Sequence record: NC_052659.1 | Direction: 5' to 3' (one strand) | Length of the DNA stretch: 64,000 nt | Origin: Escherichia phage nieznany | In this document: positions 14,628 through 61,034 of the stretch, piece by piece | Layout of the letters: every line of letters begins with the position of its first letter | How positions within the stretch are numbered: the stretch's first letter is position 1 | Position numbers and translations under genes: made by a program | The notes under the pieces: model-generated | The model's database searches: none | What the model saw: the letters and a program-made list of their open reading frames with translations, nothing else | Told to the model about the DNA's origin: nothing

Positions 14628-16871
14628 TTGATTCGTTTTGTAACTAAATCTAATGGTAAGACAGAGGAGTTTAATCCAGAAAAACTTCGCAAGTGGTCTG
14701 AATTTGCAGCAGGTAAACTAAACTGGTCTGAAATTGAATTAGAAGCTGTGAAGCGGTGTTATGACGGTGTGTCTACACGTGATCTGCATAAAGCAATGAT
14801 TGCAGCGTGTATTGACAAGAAAACACAAGCTTATAGTGATATGGCAGGAAGACTTCTTCTGGGTATGATTTACAAACAGGCTCATGGGGGATACCACAGT
14901 ATCCCTTCACTGAATACCTTTTATCATGATATGGTAGAACGTGGACATTGGGCTAAAATGGATTATACTGATGAAGAGATCAAAGAAATCGGTAAGATTG
15001 TAAAGCATAATAAAAATCTAACTTATGGTTATTCTGTTTTACGTCAGATGGTAGATAAATATCTTATTCGAGATGCAGTAAACGATGTGGTGCATGAGTC
15101 TCCACAATTTCTTTTCATTGGTATCGCAATGAAGGTTATGGAGATCCAACCAAAAGAACGCCGTATAGAAGATATTAAAAAACTTTATACTTATGTTAGC
15201 GATCTTAAGATTAATCTGCCATCGCCGTATCTGACAACTCTACGAACTCCAATCAAAGGAAGTGCGTCTTGTTGTTTATTCCGTGCAGACGATACGGCAG
15301 AGTCTTTAGCCATTGCTAATTACTTAGCTCATGAGTATACGTTGAATAACGCAGGTATTGGTGTTAATCTTCAAACTCGTGCCACAGGTCAAGGTGTTAA
15401 GAATAATCGTATTATTCATGGTGGTCTTCTTCCGTATCTGAAATGGATGGAAGATAGTGTTGGAGCTTCGAAGCAAGCAAGCCGTGGAGGTAGTGCTACA
15501 GTTACCTTCACCATACTTGAACCAGACTTCGACGATCTGATTCGACTGAAGAATCCAACAACACCTATAGATAAACGAGTAGACAAACTGGATTATTCTA
15601 TTGTTGTTAACCGTTCGTTCTTGCGTCGAGCAGCAAAAAACGAAGATTGGATGTTAGTTAGTTGTGATGATGCTCCTGAACTTTATGAAGCTTTGTATAA
15701 AAGTGAAGAAGAGTTTGATGCAGTTTATGACAAAGTAAGCCGTCGTCGCATTAAGAAAAAATTTGTTAAGGCTCGTGATCTTCTGACAGAGATTATTGTT
15801 CAACGTGCAGAAACAGGACGTATTTACATGTTCTTTGCTGACAACGTTAACAACCATACACCTTTCTTGGATACGGTGTATCAATCAAACCTGTGTCAAG
15901 AGATCTTCTTACCAACTAAAGCTTTCCACAGTATGCCGGATCTCTTTACTGGTGAGAATACAGAAGATCAAGAATTGGCTTTATGCTTCTTATCTTCTAT
16001 TGTTGCTGGTCGTGTCTTACCTGAAGAATATGAGGATGTTGCATACTACACTGTATTGACAATTGACAACGTTATTGAAACAATGGATTATCCATTTAAA
16101 CATAACGAAATAACTGCTAAAGCACGTAGATCTATTGGTGTAGGTATTACAAACTTAGCGCATTATTTGGCAAGTAATTTTGTAAATTATTCAGATGCTT
16201 ATGCTAAAAAATTAATGCATGAACTTGCAGAACGTCATTACTTTTGGTTGGCAAAAGCCTCTCTGCGTCTGGCTAAGGAAAAAGGTAATGCGGAATGGAT
16301 CGATAAGACCAAATGGCCTCAAGGTTGGCTACCAATTGACACTTATGCTAAAACAGTAGATAGTATCGGTAATTTTGATCTTAAAATGGACTGGGAAGGC
16401 TTACGTGCTGAAATCATTGAACAAGGTGGTATCCGTAACAGTGTCTTGGCTGCTATTGCACCTAATGAGTCCAGCAGTTTGGTAAGCAATACTACTAACT
16501 CTCTGTACCCTGTTCGTGATACTATTATGTATAAACAAAGTCAGAAAGGTAGCGTATTATTTATTGTTCCAGACTACGAAAAACTGAAAATGTTTTACCA
16601 GTCTGCCTGGGATACTCCGGCTAAAGATCTTGCAGAAATGTATGGTATCTTTACCAAATTCACGGACCAAGGAATTTCTTGTGATTCTTGGCTAGATTAT
16701 TCTAAATTGGTAGGTGGACGTTTATCAGTGAAAGCTGAGATGCAGTTTATTCTGAATTTTGCTAGATTGGGTGGCAAGTCGTTGTATTACCTTAATAGTA
16801 GAACAAAATCAGCAGATTCTTTAGCACAAGAAGATTCTGAAGACGAAGGGTGTAGTGCCTGTAAAATGTAG
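14628..16871 (+). CDS. nrdA: ribonucleoside-diphosphate reductase large subunit (class Ia NrdA), TTG start
   Basis: 747 aa; N-terminal ATP-cone-like region and overall NrdA architecture; GGGAGGAG RBS. Confidence 0.9.
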   Translation: MIRFVTKSNGKTEEFNPEKLRKWSEFAAGKLNWSEIELEAVKRCYDGVSTRDLHKAMIAACIDKKTQAYSDMAGRLLLGMIYKQAHGGYHSIPSLNTFYHDMVERGHWAKMDYTDEEIKEIGKIVKHNKNLTYGYSVLRQMVDKYLIRDAVNDVVHESPQFLFIGIAMKVMEIQPKERRIEDIKKLYTYVSDLKINLPSPYLTTLRTPIKGSASCCLFRADDTAESLAIANYLAHEYTLNNAGIGVNLQTRATGQGVKNNRIIHGGLLPYLKWMEDSVGASKQASRGGSATVTFTILEPDFDDLIRLKNPTTPIDKRVDKLDYSIVVNRSFLRRAAKNEDWMLVSCDDAPELYEALYKSEEEFDAVYDKVSRRRIKKKFVKARDLLTEIIVQRAETGRIYMFFADNVNNHTPFLDTVYQSNLCQEIFLPTKAFHSMPDLFTGENTEDQELALCFLSSIVAGRVLPEEYEDVAYYTVLTIDNVIETMDYPFKHNEITAKARRSIGVGITNLAHYLASNFVNYSDAYAKKLMHELAERHYFWLAKASLRLAKEKGNAEWIDKTKWPQGWLPIDTYAKTVDSIGNFDLKMDWEGLRAEIIEQGGIRNSVLAAIAPNESSSLVSNTTNSLYPVRDTIMYKQSQKGSVLFIVPDYEKLKMFYQSAWDTPAKDLAEMYGIFTKFTDQGISCDSWLDYSKLVGGRLSVKAEMQFILNFARLGGKSLYYLNSRTKSADSLAQEDSEDEGCSACKM

Positions 16872-16882
16872 TAGGAGAACAG

Positions 16883-17539
16883 ATGAAGAAGGGTAAACGT
16901 AAAGTTACCGTTCTCACAGAGAGGGGAGAAATCCCCTTGATTGTGGATGTTGAACGTAGATTGTGGGAAGGTGGTGTTATCAATGGAAAAAGGGTTAATA
17001 CATTCATAGATCCTTCCTATGCAGCTTGGAAAGGCATGTTTAATCGTGCATATCGTATGGAAAACATTAGACCAGGTTATAAAGATGTTACCGTGTGTGA
17101 TGCTTGGTTCACCTTTTCAAACTTTGATAACTGGTATCAAGAACATAACGTGGAAGGCTTTGTTTTAGATAAAGATCTTGTTCTTGAAGGAAATACTGTT
17201 TACTGTCCTGAATATTGTAGGTTTGTTCCTCCTTACATAAATACACTTTTAAGTTATGCTAAGAGGTATGAAAGAAAATACTTACTAGGAGCACATGTTA
17301 GGAAAGATGGTAAGATTTATGCCAAAGCTTCTGGGAGCAAAGGTAAGCATTTAGGTTACTTCGCTACAGAGGAAGAGGCACACTTCGCTTGGCTAAAGGA
17401 TAAAGCTAAGTCAATCAGGGAAACAGCGGATCGTTACAAAGAGGAAGAACATTTTTATCAAGAGGTGTACAACACTCTTGTAAACAAGGCGGATTTCTAT
17501 TGGCATCTGGCTGAAACAAAAACAGTGTTTCGAGGCTAA
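16883..17539 (+). CDS. homing endonuclease-like protein inserted between nrdA and nrdB (AP2-like domain)
   Basis: Paralog of 1590..2261; position equals that of mobE in T4 (established knowledge). Confidence 0.55.
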   Translation: MKKGKRKVTVLTERGEIPLIVDVERRLWEGGVINGKRVNTFIDPSYAAWKGMFNRAYRMENIRPGYKDVTVCDAWFTFSNFDNWYQEHNVEGFVLDKDLVLEGNTVYCPEYCRFVPPYINTLLSYAKRYERKYLLGAHVRKDGKIYAKASGSKGKHLGYFATEEEAHFAWLKDKAKSIRETADRYKEEEHFYQEVYNTLVNKADFYWHLAETKTVFRG

Positions 17540-17584: not shown

Positions 17585-18673
17585 ATGGCAGCAATTAATT
17601 TACACAATGAAGTTTACAAAACAGGAAAATATCCAGTATTTTTAGGGGAACAATTAGGGATCTTTGATTCTGTTAACGTAACTTATCCAGAAATGCACAA
17701 ACTCTACAAACTTCAAAAAGCACAAGATTGGGATGAGAATGAAGTCAATCTGGATCAGACACGTAAAGATTTCGTAGCTTGTTCTAAAAACAACTATGAT
17801 GTTATGATTAAAAACTTATCTTTCCAATGGGAAAATGATTCTCTTGCAAAATCAATCATCACTTTGTTCTCTCCATTCTTGAGTAACAATGAAGCCTGTG
17901 CTATGATGATGAAGCAGAGTGAAATGGAAGTTCTCCATGCGTTAACGTATTCTGAAATAATCCGTCAATGTACTCCAGATCCAATCGAAGTCATCAATCA
18001 GATTATGATTAATGATAAAATTTTCAATCGTATGGGTATCATTGCTGATATCATGGGTCAGTTGGAAGAAGCTGGTCATAAGTATGCTCTAGGATTGATT
18101 GAAGCTAACGATGAACTTCGACTGCTGATTCTTAAAGGGATGGTAGCCCTGATTGGGTTAGAAGGTATTCAGTTTATATCTTCCTTCTCTGCTACTTTTG
18201 CTATGGCAGAACAACAACTGTTTGTTGGAGCTTGTAAACTGATCCAGAAAATTATGCTAGATGAAATCTTGCATGTTAAGATGGATTATGCTGTAATTGA
18301 TGCATTGATGCATGACCCAATTTGGCGTAAAATTTACGAAGACAACATTGAAGAGTTGACTTTGATTCTTGACACTGTTGTTGAACAAGAGGAACAGTGG
18401 TGTGACTACCTGTTTAGTGAAGGGCGTTTTATTGTAGGTCTTAACGCCGAATTGTCTAAACAATGGGTTTATTTCAATGCTGCTCCTATTTATCGTCGAT
18501 TGAAAATGAAAGCCAAGTTTAAAGCACCTAAACATAGTCCTTTAGCTTGGATGGAAAAATGGTTGAATCCTGATTTGATTCAGTCAGCAGCCCAAGAGAT
18601 TCAGTTAACTAACTACAAATTAAATTCAGCTAACAAAGATCTCTCTGATGATGAGGAGCTTGACTTCGAATGA
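17585..18673 (+). CDS. nrdB: ribonucleoside-diphosphate reductase small subunit NrdB
   Basis: 362 aa, ferritin-like di-iron protein immediately downstream of nrdA. Confidence 0.85.
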   Translation: MAAINLHNEVYKTGKYPVFLGEQLGIFDSVNVTYPEMHKLYKLQKAQDWDENEVNLDQTRKDFVACSKNNYDVMIKNLSFQWENDSLAKSIITLFSPFLSNNEACAMMMKQSEMEVLHALTYSEIIRQCTPDPIEVINQIMINDKIFNRMGIIADIMGQLEEAGHKYALGLIEANDELRLLILKGMVALIGLEGIQFISSFSATFAMAEQQLFVGACKLIQKIMLDEILHVKMDYAVIDALMHDPIWRKIYEDNIEELTLILDTVVEQEEQWCDYLFSEGRFIVGLNAELSKQWVYFNAAPIYRRLKMKAKFKAPKHSPLAWMEKWLNPDLIQSAAQEIQLTNYKLNSANKDLSDDEELDFE

Positions 18674-34522: not shown

Positions 34523-34996
34523 ATGTTTCAAGTAAATGTCAATGTGCATAATAGTTACTCTGATTGTGAGACGTGTGGCTATAATTCATCTAATGTTGTT
34601 CGTATTAGTGGCGATTTAGGAGAAGCTTCTTTTGGAGAAGAAGCAAGTTGCTTTAGTGGTATGGATGCAGAATGGAACGATATTGCACATTGGTTGGTGA
34701 GCAAACTAAAAGAAAAAGAGAAACCATTTCCTACTCTGCTTGATCGTTCTCTTGTAGAAGATGCAGGTAAAGCATATGCAGACTATGCGTATGCAGACGG
34801 GAAATATTTGGAAGATGATAAGGCTAACCATTTGCTTTATGTTTACTATGAAGCTGAATCTGCCTACGATAATTATTATAGCATGTCTAACATCCTACGT
34901 CTGTTTGCAGAGTTTGATATTTATTTCGAAGTAGAATTTTCAGAAGATGATACTTACGAATATGATTCTTATGATCCATTTGAGGAGGACGAATAA
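34523..34996 (+). CDS. hypothetical highly acidic protein
   Basis: 157 aa ORF, D/E/Y-rich C-terminus. Confidence 0.45.
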   Translation: MFQVNVNVHNSYSDCETCGYNSSNVVRISGDLGEASFGEEASCFSGMDAEWNDIAHWLVSKLKEKEKPFPTLLDRSLVEDAGKAYADYAYADGKYLEDDKANHLLYVYYEAESAYDNYYSMSNILRLFAEFDIYFEVEFSEDDTYEYDSYDPFEEDE

Positions 34997-35796
34997 TGCC
35001 AAGACGTGTATATTTTATTAGTGGTGCGGGACTAAGTGCTGACAGCGGAATCCAAACATTTCGCACAGAAACAGATTCTGGAAAGGCATTATGGGATGAA
35101 TACGATTTAACAGAAGTCTGTGACATTTTCAACTTCCGTGACGGTTATCAGCAAGAACAGGGTATTCCTGATGCTATGGGTGGCTTAGATGTGGAAGGAT
35201 ATAACCTCTACCGTAAAACTCACGACTTCTACAATAAACGTCGCGTGGAATTAGAGAAAGTTGACCCGAATCCAGCACATCTTCAGATTGGAGAATGGTT
35301 CGAAAAATACGGTGCAGAAAGGATTATTAACATTACTACTAACGTTGACGATCTATTAGAACGCGCTGGAATCGATAGAGAAGAAATATTGCACGTTCAT
35401 GGTTTCTTGCCAGAAGTTGTTGTTGATAACAAAATTATCAAAGATGTGGGTTACGCAGCTATTGATGTAGACGATTACAAATATGTGAAGCCTAATGTGG
35501 TGTTTTTTGGTGAGAATGCACCACTCTACACAGACATGTATCACAAACTGGATCAACTAACATCACAAGATATGGTTATCGTTGTAGGCTGCTCTAACCA
35601 AGTAATCAACTTCAACTGGGAACTCTTCCCTGCCCTGAATATTGGGGTTAAGATGGTTGTAGTTAACCCAGGTTTGAATTTTGTAGAACAAACTCTCTAC
35701 GAAGAACGTGGAGTGCTTGTCTACCGAGAGAAAGCAGGAACAGTCTTCAGTGATGAAGGCTTTATCAAAATGGTTGAAGACCATTTAAACAAATAA
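34996..35796 (+). CDS. Sir2 (sirtuin)-family NAD-dependent protein, lacking the zinc-ribbon cysteines
   Basis: GAGLSADSGIQTFR (GAGIS..GIPxFR), TTNVDDLLERAG (TQNID), catalytic HVHG, VVFFGE, VVGCS. Confidence 0.7.
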   Translation: MPRRVYFISGAGLSADSGIQTFRTETDSGKALWDEYDLTEVCDIFNFRDGYQQEQGIPDAMGGLDVEGYNLYRKTHDFYNKRRVELEKVDPNPAHLQIGEWFEKYGAERIINITTNVDDLLERAGIDREEILHVHGFLPEVVVDNKIIKDVGYAAIDVDDYKYVKPNVVFFGENAPLYTDMYHKLDQLTSQDMVIVVGCSNQVINFNWELFPALNIGVKMVVVNPGLNFVEQTLYEERGVLVYREKAGTVFSDEGFIKMVEDHLNK

Positions 35797-57616: not shown

Positions 57617-57845
57617 GTTTTACATACAGAAGAGGAAGCGCCACCCCCACGGCGTAAAGGCGGGGCTAACATACCAGGGGGCACTGGTTGGAAGGTTGAT
57701 CGCCGGTAGGCTGGGCGCTATATATTTGTAAAGAAATGTAAAGATAAAATAATCGCTTGCTTTCCTAGCTGGATCTGTTATTCTTATTACATGGCGAGGG
57801 GACACGGGAGCGCGAGACAAACACCGCCCCTGCGCGTCATTCTCT

Positions 57846-57953
57846 AAATGAGATTGATTCTTATTTAATAAGGTAAATGACAATCATTCTCATTTATAAA
57901 CTTAAATGCGAATCATTATCATTTGCATTTCCATATGAGAACTCTTCTCATTT
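57846..57953. repeat. four 21-bp palindromic sites (AAATGAGA-N5-TCTCATTT type) at exact 29-bp periodicity: iteron/operator-like array
   Basis: Sites begin at 57846, 57875, 57904, 57933. Confidence 0.6.
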
Positions 57954-57975
57954 TCACCTGCATAAAAATTTTTGT

Positions 57976-58152
57976 AAACTTTAAATTTTGCTTTTGTACT
58001 TTCATTTTTGTAAAAGCAAAAAAACTTTAAATACTGTGGGCGCGCAAAATTTTTAAAATTTTCCTTGACTTTTGAGTTTTGTTTTGTATCTAACATTTTA
58101 AGATAATTTTCCTAAACTTTAAATTTTGGTTTTCAACTTTCACTTTTGTAAA
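57976..58152. repeat. two copies of a 39-bp direct repeat AAACTTTAAATTTTG(C/G)TTTT..ACTTTCA(T/C)TTTTGTAAA (57976-58014 and 58114-58152) in an AT-rich noncoding region
   Basis: Seen in sequence. Confidence 0.55.
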
Positions 58153-58394
58153 TTCTTAAAAAGTTTAAATAATTTGAGGGATTTTTGAGATAAAAGATAG
58201 TGGGAATTTGATATAACCTTTAATCTTATTGGTAAACCTTCAGGAACCCACTCAGATCGAATCCTAGTGATGCAAACTGAAAAAGACAAGGGTTTGTATA
58301 GGACAAAATAACAGGCTCTCTACGGTGCTGTAGGAGCCTTATTTCTGGGCTACAAAGTGACACCTTTGTTCTAAAAATGAAAAAAGTTAAAATA

Positions 58395-58937
58395 TCACAA
58401 ATATCGTCTTTGCGGTATTTTGTCTGGGAAAAGTATTTCGATCAGTTTATTATGATATTTGCCTAAAAGATTCTGCCCTTTCCAGGTAGCAGGGTTTAGC
58501 ACCCCTGGTTCATACATTCCCATTCCAATACCGTAAACCTTATCGTAAGGACTTGCTTCAACAAACGTTTTGTATTGGTAAAGGTGTAAGTCTGCATACA
58601 AATCTGGATTCTGTACATATTTCAAGCATAAGCCTCGCATAACAATACGCTCACGGTTCTCTTCCCACATATCATTATTAAAACCAGATACCGCTCGACC
58701 CATACGTTTGTAGTATGCTTGTTTCCTCTCGTTGTCACGTATAGTTGAGTGATCAAGGATAGCTGCTGCAATCGCATGATCCTTGAACAGCAAAGCCTTA
58801 CGCCACATCATATATTGCTCAACACAACAGAAAGTCTCATTGTAACCTGGTTCAGTTTCTGTAAAGGGTGCAATATACCAATTACTAAACACATCTTTAT
58901 GTGAAAAGAAGAATACATATTCATCAGTTATTCTCAT
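58395..58937 (-). CDS. NADAR / YbiA-like (DUF1768) domain protein
   Basis: N-terminal YVFFFSHKDVFSNWYIAPF and EQYMMWRKALLFKD resemble the NADAR family signature. Confidence 0.5.
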   Translation of the reverse strand: MRITDEYVFFFSHKDVFSNWYIAPFTETEPGYNETFCCVEQYMMWRKALLFKDHAIAAAILDHSTIRDNERKQAYYKRMGRAVSGFNNDMWEENRERIVMRGLCLKYVQNPDLYADLHLYQYKTFVEASPYDKVYGIGMGMYEPGVLNPATWKGQNLLGKYHNKLIEILFPDKIPQRRYL

Positions 58938-59149
58938 TTTTTCATGCCTTCTAAAACTTTAGCTTGCCCGTCTTGAAAAGCTTTCATCAGAACTATCTTA
59001 AGATTGACTTCCAAACGTTCTTCATCCTCTCTATAACAATCCAACACTGCTTTAAGTTCATCATAGTGGTTCAGAATAGGTTTAAAGATTTCATGATCTG
59101 CTAAACGTGCCATAGTTTCTCCTTTGTTAGTCCATCCACCAGTAGCCAT
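58934..59149 (-). CDS. hypothetical protein
   Basis: 71 aa ORF. Confidence 0.4.
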   Translation of the reverse strand: MATGGWTNKGETMARLADHEIFKPILNHYDELKAVLDCYREDEERLEVNLKIVLMKAFQDGQAKVLEGMKK

Positions 59150-59492
59150 AAACTGCGTCTGCGTCGATGAGTTTGTGTTTGTTGTTCCGCATGTAGTCTA
59201 AGATAAGTAGACGTTTATTGTATCTGGAGAGATTATGACCCTCTTTTCCGCCATAGTCAAAATATTTTGCAAGATCTTTACACTCAAACAAAATCAGTTC
59301 GGGAGTTTCTTCACACTGGTCTGTCTGGTACACTTGACGAATGATCATGTATACATCGTCGTCTTCCGCTAAATGCTCTACTGGTCCACATCCAGCAGGA
59401 ACAAATTCATAGTCCCATCTGATCAGATGTTTCTCTACTGCTTCAAAGAAATCCATCCTTTCATTGCGCATAATTTGAACGTCAACTAACAT
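59127..59492 (-). CDS. hypothetical protein
   Basis: 121 aa ORF. Confidence 0.4.
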   Translation of the reverse strand: MLVDVQIMRNERMDFFEAVEKHLIRWDYEFVPAGCGPVEHLAEDDDVYMIIRQVYQTDQCEETPELILFECKDLAKYFDYGGKEGHNLSRYNKRLLILDYMRNNKHKLIDADAVYGYWWMD

Positions 59493-60946
59493 GTTTCCTC
59501 CTCTCTCATTATTCCACCTGCTTGGTTGATAGCACTTAAGACGATAGCCAAATCCTCGCGCAGGAAGGTTTCACTATGACCATCTTTCATGTGCAAGCGT
59601 TCTACACAGCCAATAGACGGTAGAATCTGATCAGTCTTAGACTTTAGCTTACTCTCTAACGCCCTGCAAGCTTGGTAGGACGGCAGATCGAACAATGCTA
59701 TACGGCGCATAGAGTAATTGTTGTTTGCATTCTGCCCTTTGATCCTGATATCACTGTCCTTTGCAATCCCCAACTTGTAAGCTCCCGTGTCTTCTCCGTA
59801 CTCATCAAGAATAATATTGATGTAAAATTCTTGCATATTTCTGTTCTTACAGCCTGGACAACCTTTCCCATTGAGATAATCGGTAGGTGTGATCGTTTGC
59901 TCTCCATGCTCCCTACATAGATATTTAAACTTGCTGTTATTGCTTACCTTATCAATGAATCCTATAAATTGATCCCCTCGTTCCTGGCAAGCTTTGGTCA
60001 TACGGTAGGCCCATTGTTCAGGAGTGTAATGATAATATTTAGAACAACGGCAAGGAAGGCCACCCCTTTTCAAATGACTCATCTTCATCTCAAATTTATT
60101 ATCGCATAAGCCTTCTTTACAATAATCATCCTCTGCACATATAGGACATTCTACAATCCAGTAAACCTGACGACCTAATCTATCTACTCTATCGCTACGA
60201 TAATATTTACGCTCTACATTATCAGGACAAGCTTTTATAAAATCTTCAACATGTTGTTTATCCTCCATAGTATTCCTTTGTTTCGTCATTTCTCTTTGAC
60301 AACTGTAGCATCCAGTCCCTTGTTTAGCACTGTTTACAGTGGTAGTGCACCATTGACCATGAACCTTACACTCACAAATCAACTTAGTGCGGGAACCGTT
60401 CCACGGTTCCACATAGCCTCTAACAATCCAGGGTTTTTCTTTATAAGCTTCTTCTACTTCTTCTTTATGTTTCTCCCATGCAATCGATGTTCTTTCTCTG
60501 TTTGCTTCTCCCATACACTTCCTGCATCCACTCCCGTTTTTCGCAGAAGATATAGAAGTAGACCTCCACTCCCCATGTAAAGCACAACAACAAACCAGTT
60601 TAGTATTCCATCCTTTCCATTCTCCGTGCCATCCTGTAACAGTCCAAAACTTACCTGCCTGATTGTAAGTGGTTTGCACTTCTTCTTTATATTGCTCCCA
60701 GGTTTTTGATTTGTTTATAGATACTGCTTTACTTATAATCTCCCTACCGCATTCTGGACAACCCCTCCCTAGTTTAGCGGTATTTATGCTTGTTGTTTTC
60801 CATTCTCCATGCAGAGCACAGATGCATCTAAGTTTAGTTTTATTGCCGTTCCACGGCTCAATATAATCTACAACAGTCCAAGACTTACCTTGATAAGCTT
60901 GTTTTATATCTGTTTTATATTGTTCCCAAGTGACTATTTTTGGCAC
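59486..60946 (-). CDS. zinc-finger repeat protein (three or four about 65-aa Cys/His modules) with possible C-terminal GIY-YIG-like nuclease domain
   Basis: Repeated W..Y.EPWNG..TKL.C.C..HGEW.T....AK.G.GC..C modules; C-terminal FYINIIL-x9-YKLGIA-x6-R resembles GIY-(10)-YIG-R. Confidence 0.35.
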   Translation of the reverse strand: MPKIVTWEQYKTDIKQAYQGKSWTVVDYIEPWNGNKTKLRCICALHGEWKTTSINTAKLGRGCPECGREIISKAVSINKSKTWEQYKEEVQTTYNQAGKFWTVTGWHGEWKGWNTKLVCCCALHGEWRSTSISSAKNGSGCRKCMGEANRERTSIAWEKHKEEVEEAYKEKPWIVRGYVEPWNGSRTKLICECKVHGQWCTTTVNSAKQGTGCYSCQREMTKQRNTMEDKQHVEDFIKACPDNVERKYYRSDRVDRLGRQVYWIVECPICAEDDYCKEGLCDNKFEMKMSHLKRGGLPCRCSKYYHYTPEQWAYRMTKACQERGDQFIGFIDKVSNNSKFKYLCREHGEQTITPTDYLNGKGCPGCKNRNMQEFYINIILDEYGEDTGAYKLGIAKDSDIRIKGQNANNNYSMRRIALFDLPSYQACRALESKLKSKTDQILPSIGCVERLHMKDGHSETFLREDLAIVLSAINQAGGIMREEETC

Positions 60947-61034
60947 ACCTCCCCCTTTAGCTATTAGTGCGAGCCTACAACAAAAGAATAACTAAAATCC
61001 CTCCATAACAAATGCCCCTTGCGGGGCATCTTTA

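Follow-up and report, generated by a model that had tools for sequence, protein, structure and literature searches.

A stand-alone NADAR protein of a phAPEC8-like Escherichia phage as a probable AdfN-type counter to DarT1

Introduction

What use does a lytic Escherichia coli phage have for a small protein of the NADAR type that no toxin gene accompanies? The question is raised by a minus-strand gene in a 64,000-nucleotide stretch of the genome of Escherichia phage nieznany (NC_052659.1; this whole 64-kb stretch is referred to here as the window), a phAPEC8-like E. coli myovirus of the genus Phapecoctavirus, subfamily Stephanstirmvirinae. GenBank labels of this gene in phage records vary widely, from ‘hypothetical protein’ through ‘GTP cyclohydrolase II’, ‘COG3236’ and ‘YbiA-like N-glycosidase’ to, occasionally, ‘NADAR family protein’, and these labels point to quite different kinds of biology.

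One possible role is counter-defence. Johannesman et al. 2025 (Nat Commun, PMC11825919) described T4 gp30.3 as a NADAR DNA ADP-ribosylglycohydrolase that counters the DarTG1 defence and named it AdfN^T4 (AdfN, anti-DarT factor NADAR). The same authors also assayed the unrelated AdfN^Bas32 and AdfN^Bas60, the latter encoded by the BASEL phages Bas60, Bas61 and Bas62 (PMC11825919). Both of these neutralised DarT1 in uninfected E. coli and let RB69, T5 and Bas25 recover their titres on hosts carrying DarTG1, whereas T5 was not helped on DarTG2 (PMC11825919). The part of that paper dealing with AdfN^Bas60 reports ectopic expression and gives no Bas60 deletion phenotype. Here, we combine profile searches, structure prediction, active-site mapping and gene-order comparison to place the Phapecoctavirus gene among the known NADARs and to weigh what its product may act upon.

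Results

Gene structure and genomic surroundings

An ATG-to-stop open reading frame of 180 aa spans the interval 58395-58937 exactly (ORF list; Table 1), and its translation contains both of the strings that had first been quoted as NADAR-like, YVFFFSHKDVFSNWYIAPF and EQYMMWRKALLF. Escherichia phage vB_EcoM_Schickermooser is 99.7% identical over the region and phage tuntematon 99.6% over the first 24 kb of the window, both of them members of Phapecoctavirus; the Schickermooser counterpart of the gene, HOV53_gp170, is annotated ‘hypothetical protein, DUF1768’.

The gene appears genuine, with a Shine-Dalgarno-like motif ahead of its ATG, a start codon that shares ATGA with the stop of the preceding ORF (read from the sequence), an N-terminus (MRITD) identical to that of the Bas60/61 ortholog described below, and a terminator-like hairpin downstream. 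The ATGA overlap suggests translational coupling with the upstream ORF. The downstream hairpin, a bulged 10-bp stem of -17.3 kcal/mol (z=-4.3; 0 of 200 shuffled sequences folded as well), was missed by a consensus terminator scan because of the bulge and was found by direct folding.

Upstream, the CapR-repeat gene and the two small ORFs that follow it (Table 1) are probably co-transcribed with the NADAR gene. A palindromic terminator-like hairpin (61012-61029), annotated in a relative, divides this CapR-NADAR block from an AAA ATPase gene, and the NADAR gene itself lies inside a long minus-strand run of small ORFs without assigned function. The gene is an orphan in the sense of a lytic-phage gene without an adjacent ADP-ribosyltransferase toxin: no ADP-ribosyltransferase domain was found in its three upstream neighbours, and the ~575 bp downstream hold no annotated gene in a relative. 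Searches for tRNAs and Rfam families returned none in the 64-kb window, including the unannotated stretch 3′ of the gene.

Table 1 Features of the NADAR locus and the Sir2-like gene in the window
Feature	Position	Strand	Basis
Sir2-like gene	34996-35796	+	PF02146 E=1.4e-20; annotated Sir2 in tuntematon
Terminator-like hairpin (58313-58339), 56 nt past the NADAR stop, with a U-rich tract on its 3′ side	58301..58339	-	RNA fold
NADAR coding sequence, single-domain, AdfN^Bas60 ortholog	58395..58937	-	ORF, PF08719, AF2, Foldseek, 57% identity
Glu127 codon (GAA), catalytic Glu; equivalent to PnNADAR E125 and SCO5665 E167	58557..58559	-	
Lys77 codon; equivalent to PnNADAR K75 and C7 K115	58707..58709	-	
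Lys47 codon (AAG), pyrophosphate coordination; equivalent to PnNADAR K50, C7 K95 and AdfN^T4 K43	58797..58799	-	
Glu40 codon (GAG), distal-ribose positioning; equivalent to PnNADAR E43, C7 NADAR E88 and AdfN^T4 E36	58818..58820	-	
Shine-Dalgarno-like GAAGG, 9 nt 5′ of the NADAR ATG	58947..58951	-	Read from sequence
Upstream co-oriented ORFs, successive ones overlapping	58934..60946	-	ORF list
71-aa ORF, without Pfam match	58934-59149	-	
121-aa ORF, without Pfam match	59127-59492	-	
CapR-repeat protein, 486 aa	59486-60946	-	Five CapR PF21817 stretches

Family membership and predicted fold

A preliminary description of the locus had likened the product to the NADAR (DUF1768/YbiA) family, and the profile search against Pfam NADAR PF08719 (DUF1768), which had been set beforehand as the refuting test, returned a strong match (E=3.4e-35; 122.1 bits against a gathering score of 35.1) that aligns residues 11-161 with profile positions 3-154 of 163. 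With both quoted motifs in place, the likeness stands, and the similarity of the 180-aa protein to NADARs is far beyond chance. The protein also matched the NCBIfam model TIGR02464 (riboflavin biosynthesis intermediates N-glycosidase; E=3.8e-33, 114.9 bits against a cutoff of 73.7), phrog_1017 (E=3.8e-51) and, in a phmmer search of PDB sequences, the NADAR chain 8bau_A (E=1.2e-12). With NF053876, which describes the DS-32 NADAR anti-phage protein, it scored 15.4 bits against a cutoff of 240 and so falls outside that equivalog. The PADLOC model PDC-M42C, a candidate defence-system NADAR component, was matched at 119.5 bits; this model also matches YbiA and AdfN^Bas60.

An AF2 model built from 70 homologs (mean pLDDT 95.3, pTM 0.89) has an alpha-helical core flanked by small beta elements that superposes on solved NADARs. 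When it was compared with the PDB by Foldseek at E<=0.001, just two structures were returned, both of them NADARs: 8BAU, the Phytophthora NADAR-ADP-ribose complex (TM 0.79, E=1.7e-9), and 2B3W, E. coli YbiA (TM 0.66). Across phages, NADAR genes were found by tblastn in 717 records, essentially one in each genome, most of which belong to large myoviruses of Staphylococcus, Listeria, Enterococcus, Bacillus and enterobacteria.

Conservation of the ADP-ribose site

To compare the predicted binding site with one that has been solved, the ADP-ribose (ADPr) contacts described for the Phytophthora nicotianae protein PnNADAR by Schuller et al. 2023 (PMC11543638) were mapped by HMMER alignment to 8bau, whose PDB numbering is shifted by +2 relative to the paper, consistently at all 13 positions. 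Identical residues occupy 10-11 of the 13 positions in the 180-aa protein (PnNADAR E43 = E40, K50 = K47, K75 = K77, G78 = G80, R79 = R81, V81 = V83, Y84 = F86, D86 = N88, W89 = W91, R93 = R95, E125 = E127, D130 = D132 and W133 = Y135); the substitutions comprise two aromatic-for-aromatic swaps (Y84->F86 and W133->Y135) and D86->N88. Six of these residues (E40, K47, G80, W91, E127 and D132) are invariant in the 70 homologs, and K77 and R81 are nearly so.

The conserved Ser, Glu and Lys along the substrate channel of NADARs (S69/E87/K94 in SCO5665; E88/K95 in C7) are represented by S18, E40 and K47, which are invariant in both alignments. S18-x-W20 matches the base-stacking position S69-x-W71 of SCO5665 by motif spacing, and Glu127 stands in the context VEAS, aligned to YEAS of 8bau. 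In AdfN^T4, mutation of E36 or K43 weakens counter-defence (PMC11825919).

A further lysine, K77, corresponds to a residue (K115) that in the C7 NADAR is dispensable for catalysis and required for in-vivo rescue from DarT1 (PMC11543638). The alignment column holds lysine in the 180-aa protein, Bas61 and PnNADAR, alanine in YbiA and glutamine in T4 gp30.3, and both YbiA and T4 gp30.3 hydrolyse guanine-ADPr yet do not rescue uninfected cells from DarT1 (PMC11125620). For the few proteins compared, with T4 gp30.3 aligned poorly, this pattern is suggestive of a K77-type lysine that tracks with rescue of uninfected cells from DarT1.

Positional orthology to AdfN^Bas60

Among phage genomes, EmilieFrey carries bas61_ tags and PaulScherrer bas60_ tags, each with one NADAR gene (bas61_0107 and bas60_0111, mutually 98.9% identical), and we equate AdfN^Bas60 with bas60_0111 because it is the sole NADAR locus in the Bas60 genome. 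Both phages are now classed in the genus Justusliebigvirus of the Stephanstirmvirinae, for which PMC11825919 has the older ‘Vequintavirinae’. The 180-aa protein is 57% identical to bas61_0107 over 172 aa (E=3e-67) and 57% identical to bas60_0111. Gene order is kept between the two groups of phages: an AAA ATPase (64% identity) is followed by the CapR-repeat protein (35%), the NADAR protein (57%), a 90-aa ORF (92%) and a 188-aa ORF (66%), and the sole local difference is that in Phapecoctavirus two additional small ORFs, of 121 and 71 aa, separate the CapR-repeat gene from the NADAR gene. Given this identity, a single NADAR locus per genome on both sides of the comparison and the conserved gene order, we conclude that the gene is a positional ortholog of AdfN^Bas60.

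The two proteins further share their subfamily of origin (Stephanstirmvirinae), the Glu/Lys/Glu catalytic set and the pattern of Pfam, TIGR and PADLOC matches. They differ at 43% of residues, and 6 residues are inserted after position 33 in the Bas60 protein.

For clade placement we relied on the position of AdfN^Bas60 in the tree of Johannesman et al., where it groups with non-YbiA bacterial NADARs (PMC11825919). The closest cellular homologs of the 180-aa protein, which are 42-47% identical to it and encoded by a Kofleriaceae MAG and by Burkholderia pseudomallei, are stand-alone; a toxin-antitoxin neighbourhood was looked for at both loci, and no ADP-ribosyltransferase was found beside either homolog. 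Such stand-alone cellular homologs agree with the published tree position of AdfN^Bas60, which falls among bacterial NADARs that are neither DarT-associated nor of the YbiA type. The Kofleriaceae homolog sits among unrelated genes, and that of B. pseudomallei adjoins a Gp3-like gene and a DUF7696 gene and may belong to a prophage.

Comparison with other characterized NADARs

PnNADAR (8BAU), the best match among solved structures, shares the E125-type catalytic Glu with the phage protein and hydrolyses guanine-ADPr (PMC11543638). It differs in being eukaryotic and without a link to phage defence, in its 28-34% identity and in having N-terminal and internal extensions of its own.

The second catalytic position separates the remaining lineages, being Glu in the 180-aa protein, Asp in DarG1 and His in T4-type phage NADARs. 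DarG1 (E. coli C7, Geobacter lovleyi) has the same fold and is a guanine-ADPr N-glycohydrolase, and the equivalents of C7 E88, K95 and K115 are all present in the phage protein; DarG1 is distinguished, however, by an N-terminal beta1-beta2-alpha1 extension, by its Asp and by an adjacent darT1, all three of which the 180-aa protein lacks. Assignment to DarG1 (BC4488 family) was rejected, as the Glu falls at residue 40 as against 88 in C7, the model starts with the core strand (7-10), the catalytic residue is Glu127 and not Asp (D171 in C7), and no ADP-ribosyltransferase gene adjoins.

AdfN^T4 (gp30.3) is likewise a phage orphan NADAR directed against DarTG1, with the same 7-residue spacing of Glu and Lys (E36/K43 vs E40/K47). 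T4-type NADARs nevertheless carry His in place of the catalytic Glu, need the context of a T-even infection and do not rescue uninfected cells, and AdfN^T4 itself, unlike the 180-aa protein, has no NCBIfam or PADLOC match (TIGR02464, PDC-M42C). Membership of the T4-type (gp30.3) clade was rejected on the grounds of Glu127 in place of His, 19% identity and differing profile matches. The T4-type and Bas60-type lineages were acquired independently, according to Johannesman et al. (PMC11825919).

Proposed function and alternative substrates

Considering these results together, we judge it probable, at roughly three chances in four, that the gene encodes a stand-alone NADAR ADP-ribosyl N-glycohydrolase serving as an orphan-antitoxin counter to DarT1, that is, an AdfN. 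In the mechanism that we propose, the DarT1 toxin of a triggered host DarTG1 system would ADP-ribosylate guanines of the phage DNA and thereby block replication. The phage NADAR would bind the ADPr moiety through contacts of K47, R81, W91 and R95 with its pyrophosphate and stacking of F86 on the adenine, with E40, E127 and D132 placed round the distal ribose, and would cut the N-glycosidic bond between ribose and guanine, leaving unmodified DNA on which replication could proceed.

Hydrolysis of guanine-ADPr on DNA by the 180-aa protein would be expected from its active-site residues and from published assays on other NADARs. At 57% identity to AdfN^Bas60, we infer that it has the same activity and plays the same role in Phapecoctavirus infection, although substrate preference could have drifted over this distance; NADARs of similar in-vitro activity, for example YbiA and T4 gp30.3, are known to differ in vivo (PMC11125620).

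Two earlier suggestions can be refined in this light. Reversal of DarT-type DNA ADP-ribosylation had been put forward in the preliminary description, and this gains support through the ortholog AdfN^Bas60 for DarT1 and not for DarT2; ‘DarT-type’ should read ‘DarT1-type’, because every NADAR tested acts on guanine-ADPr and not on thymine-ADPr (DarT2). A Sir2-like gene had also been invoked, as a sign that the phage manipulates NAD+/ADP-ribose chemistry. Such a gene exists (Table 1), but 22.6 kb separate it from the NADAR gene, it belongs to another gene block and is read from the opposite strand, and no sign of functional coupling between the two was found; we therefore rejected it as support.

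The alternative that survives best, though we regard it as improbable, is that the protein erases ADPr from nucleic acids with a natural target other than DarT1-modified DNA, such as RNA guanosine-ADPr or cytidine-ADPr produced by other host or competitor ADP-ribosyltransferases. NADARs do remove guanine-ADPr from RNA (PMC11833690), and cytidine-ADPr, on which DarG1 and T4 AdfN fail, is a substrate for members of the Glu-type ‘NADAR’ and YbiA families; the 180-aa protein has both E127 and the Trp of S18-x-W20. Against this stand the strong anti-DarT1 phenotype of the ortholog AdfN^Bas60 and the fact that no phage-defence system based on cytidine-ADPr or on RNA guanine-ADPr was found in the literature examined. 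Such a target would extend the explanation by DarT1 and does not exclude it. In the same vein, the protein may erase ADPr broadly, from cytidine as well as guanine and from RNA as well as DNA, and so protect Stephanstirmvirinae from undescribed nucleic-acid ADP-ribosylating defences beyond DarTG1; we consider this unlikely on the whole, while noting that broader specificity is plausible because the active site is of the Glu type (E127 with S18-x-W20) and has neither the Asp of DarG1 nor the His of T4 AdfN. The conserved place of the gene directly 3′ of a CapR-repeat, homing-endonuclease-like gene could also promote its transfer between phages.

We give little credence to the view that the main substrates are soluble ADPr-derived molecules, for instance toxic by-products or immune signals built on cyclic or linear ADPr, and not ADP-ribosylated DNA. 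This was proposed for most phage NADAR domains by Iyer et al. 2022 (PMC9503650), whose account of these domains offers it as a contextual prediction without experimental test, and the conserved ADPr-binding pocket would suit any ADPr-containing ligand. Every NADAR tested later, however, has as its substrate ADPr linked to bases of DNA or RNA, and the ortholog AdfN^Bas60 counters DarT1 directly (PMC11825919).

It is very improbable that the gene specifies a housekeeping N-glycosidase of the YbiA type, one that would remove reactive intermediates of the riboflavin pathway, as E. coli YbiA and the plant RibA/RibD fusions do, in metabolite damage control and not in counter-defence. In favour of such a role, the protein exceeds the TIGR02464 cutoff, as does YbiA; the BASEL annotation of the ortholog reads ‘putative YbiA-like N-glycosidase’; and Glu at the E125-equivalent position, which YbiA (2B3W) shares along with the overall fold, was a feature used to define the YbiA family in the original classification (PMC11543638). 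TIGR02464, however, gives 109.4 bits to AdfN^Bas60 and 169.5 to true YbiA, and since AdfN^Bas60 scores nearly like the 180-aa protein, the model cannot separate riboflavin N-glycosidases from AdfN. Identity to YbiA is just 30%, and 2B3W was not recovered at E<=1 by the phmmer search of PDB sequences that returned 8BAU.

Genomic context argues the same way. YbiA lies in a LexA-controlled host operon (PMC11125620); it also lacks the K77-equivalent lysine and does not rescue cells from DarT1. The phage gene stands alone, outside any LexA operon and with neither fusion to nor association with riboflavin genes. No RibA/RibD fusion was seen, the relatives’ records that cover most of the 64-kb window list no riboflavin gene, and where a record has ‘GTP cyclohydrolase II’, the label refers to the NADAR gene itself. 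The published grouping of AdfN^Bas60 with non-YbiA bacterial NADARs (PMC11825919) also weighs against a riboflavin-pathway role.

Hardly credible, finally, is a non-catalytic ADPr-binding inhibitor of NAD+-dependent defence, for which Carabias et al. 2024 (Retron-Eco1), as cited in PMC11825919, provide the precedent of a phage NADAR that, unlike AdfN, needs no enzymatic activity: all catalytic residues are kept here and are invariant across the family, and such strict conservation argues for selection on catalysis.

Discussion

The protein encoded by this Phapecoctavirus gene is best viewed as a probable new member of the published AdfN counter-defence family. The idea of an anti-DarT factor at this locus is right but not novel. 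Both the concept and a close ortholog have been in the literature since 2025, so that no new biological question is raised.

The main value of the finding lies in annotation. The gene can reasonably be relabelled a probable AdfN-type anti-DarTG1 factor, which would correct the ‘hypothetical’ and ‘GTP cyclohydrolase II’ tags in many of the phage records listed. Phages of Phapecoctavirus and Justusliebigvirus feature in studies of therapy and biocontrol; recognition of a likely DarTG1 counter-defence in these genera helps to predict their host range.

Genes and unannotated sequence around the NADAR gene

Several features flank the NADAR gene, the probable anti-DarT1 factor, or lie elsewhere in the window (see the table). 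The upstream CapR-repeat gene, which contains five stretches of CapR homology and is labelled "endonuclease" in RefSeq relatives, corresponds to bas60_0110 of the Justusliebigvirus phage Bas60 (35% identity), which lies at the equivalent position upstream of the Bas60 NADAR gene. Titles and abstracts of papers link CapR with phage nuclease genes and with an endonuclease that a phage satellite has domesticated. An adjoining mobile nuclease of this kind could aid the spread of an anti-defence NADAR gene. The two small overlapping ORFs between the CapR-repeat and NADAR genes matched nothing in a Pfam search and have no counterpart at the equivalent position in Bas60; they form a Phapecoctavirus-specific insertion within an otherwise conserved module.

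Downstream, tRNA and Rfam searches of the stretch that lacks annotated genes in Schickermooser gave no hit, and several sigma70-like hexamer pairs lie on its minus strand (58152-57950). Immediately past the equivalent stretch in the close relative Schickermooser, the genes are annotated as frameshifted phAPEC8_00257 fragments.

Features of the window
Feature	Coordinates	Strand	Details
Ribonucleotide reductase large-subunit gene	14628-16871		
218-aa ORF	16883-17539	+	between ribonucleotide reductase subunit genes
Ribonucleotide reductase small-subunit gene	17585-18673		
Sir2-family protein, 266 aa	34996-35796	+	PF02146, E=1.4e-20
Serine-recombinase/resolvase N-terminal domain protein, 225 aa	42626-43303	-	PF00239, E=5.4e-18
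Stretch of ~575 bp, 3' of NADAR gene	57820-58395		without annotated gene in Schickermooser
Pair of short ORFs that overlap, 121 aa and 71 aa	58934-59492	-	between CapR-repeat and NADAR genes
CapR-repeat protein, 486 aa	59486-60946	-	five PF21817 stretches

Other genes of the window

The Sir2-family gene, annotated in the relative tuntematon as Sir2/NAD-dependent deacetylase, shows no positional link to the NADAR gene within the window. The ribonucleotide reductase subunit genes are almost contiguous in tuntematon, and the 218-aa ORF that separates them here (no match in a Pfam search) may be an inserted mobile gene. The resolvase-domain gene, hypothetical in the tuntematon annotation, is situated in a small-ORF block of this virulent myovirus.

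Public records and defence models

Several GenBank records matching 58395-58937 label the NADAR gene "GTP cyclohydrolase II", others "hypothetical protein", and only a few name NADAR; the first label is, we think, a misannotation derived from the COG3236 RibA-fusion family name. Four records titled "Campylobacter phage" that list C. jejuni as host (MG065639, MG065645, MG065656 and MG065689) contain a NADAR gene sharing 99.5% identity with its counterpart in E. coli Justusliebigvirus phages; "Campylobacter" records of a similar kind are among the matches to the window DNA. The Campylobacter host given for these records looks doubtful.

PDC-M42C, a PADLOC model for a candidate defence-system component, matched the window NADAR protein (119.5 bits), its Bas60 ortholog AdfN^Bas60 (117.4 bits) and YbiA, the E. 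coli NADAR-fold N-glycosidase of riboflavin intermediates (56.5 bits). Since all three match this model, NADAR domains appear to occur both in defence and in counter-defence.
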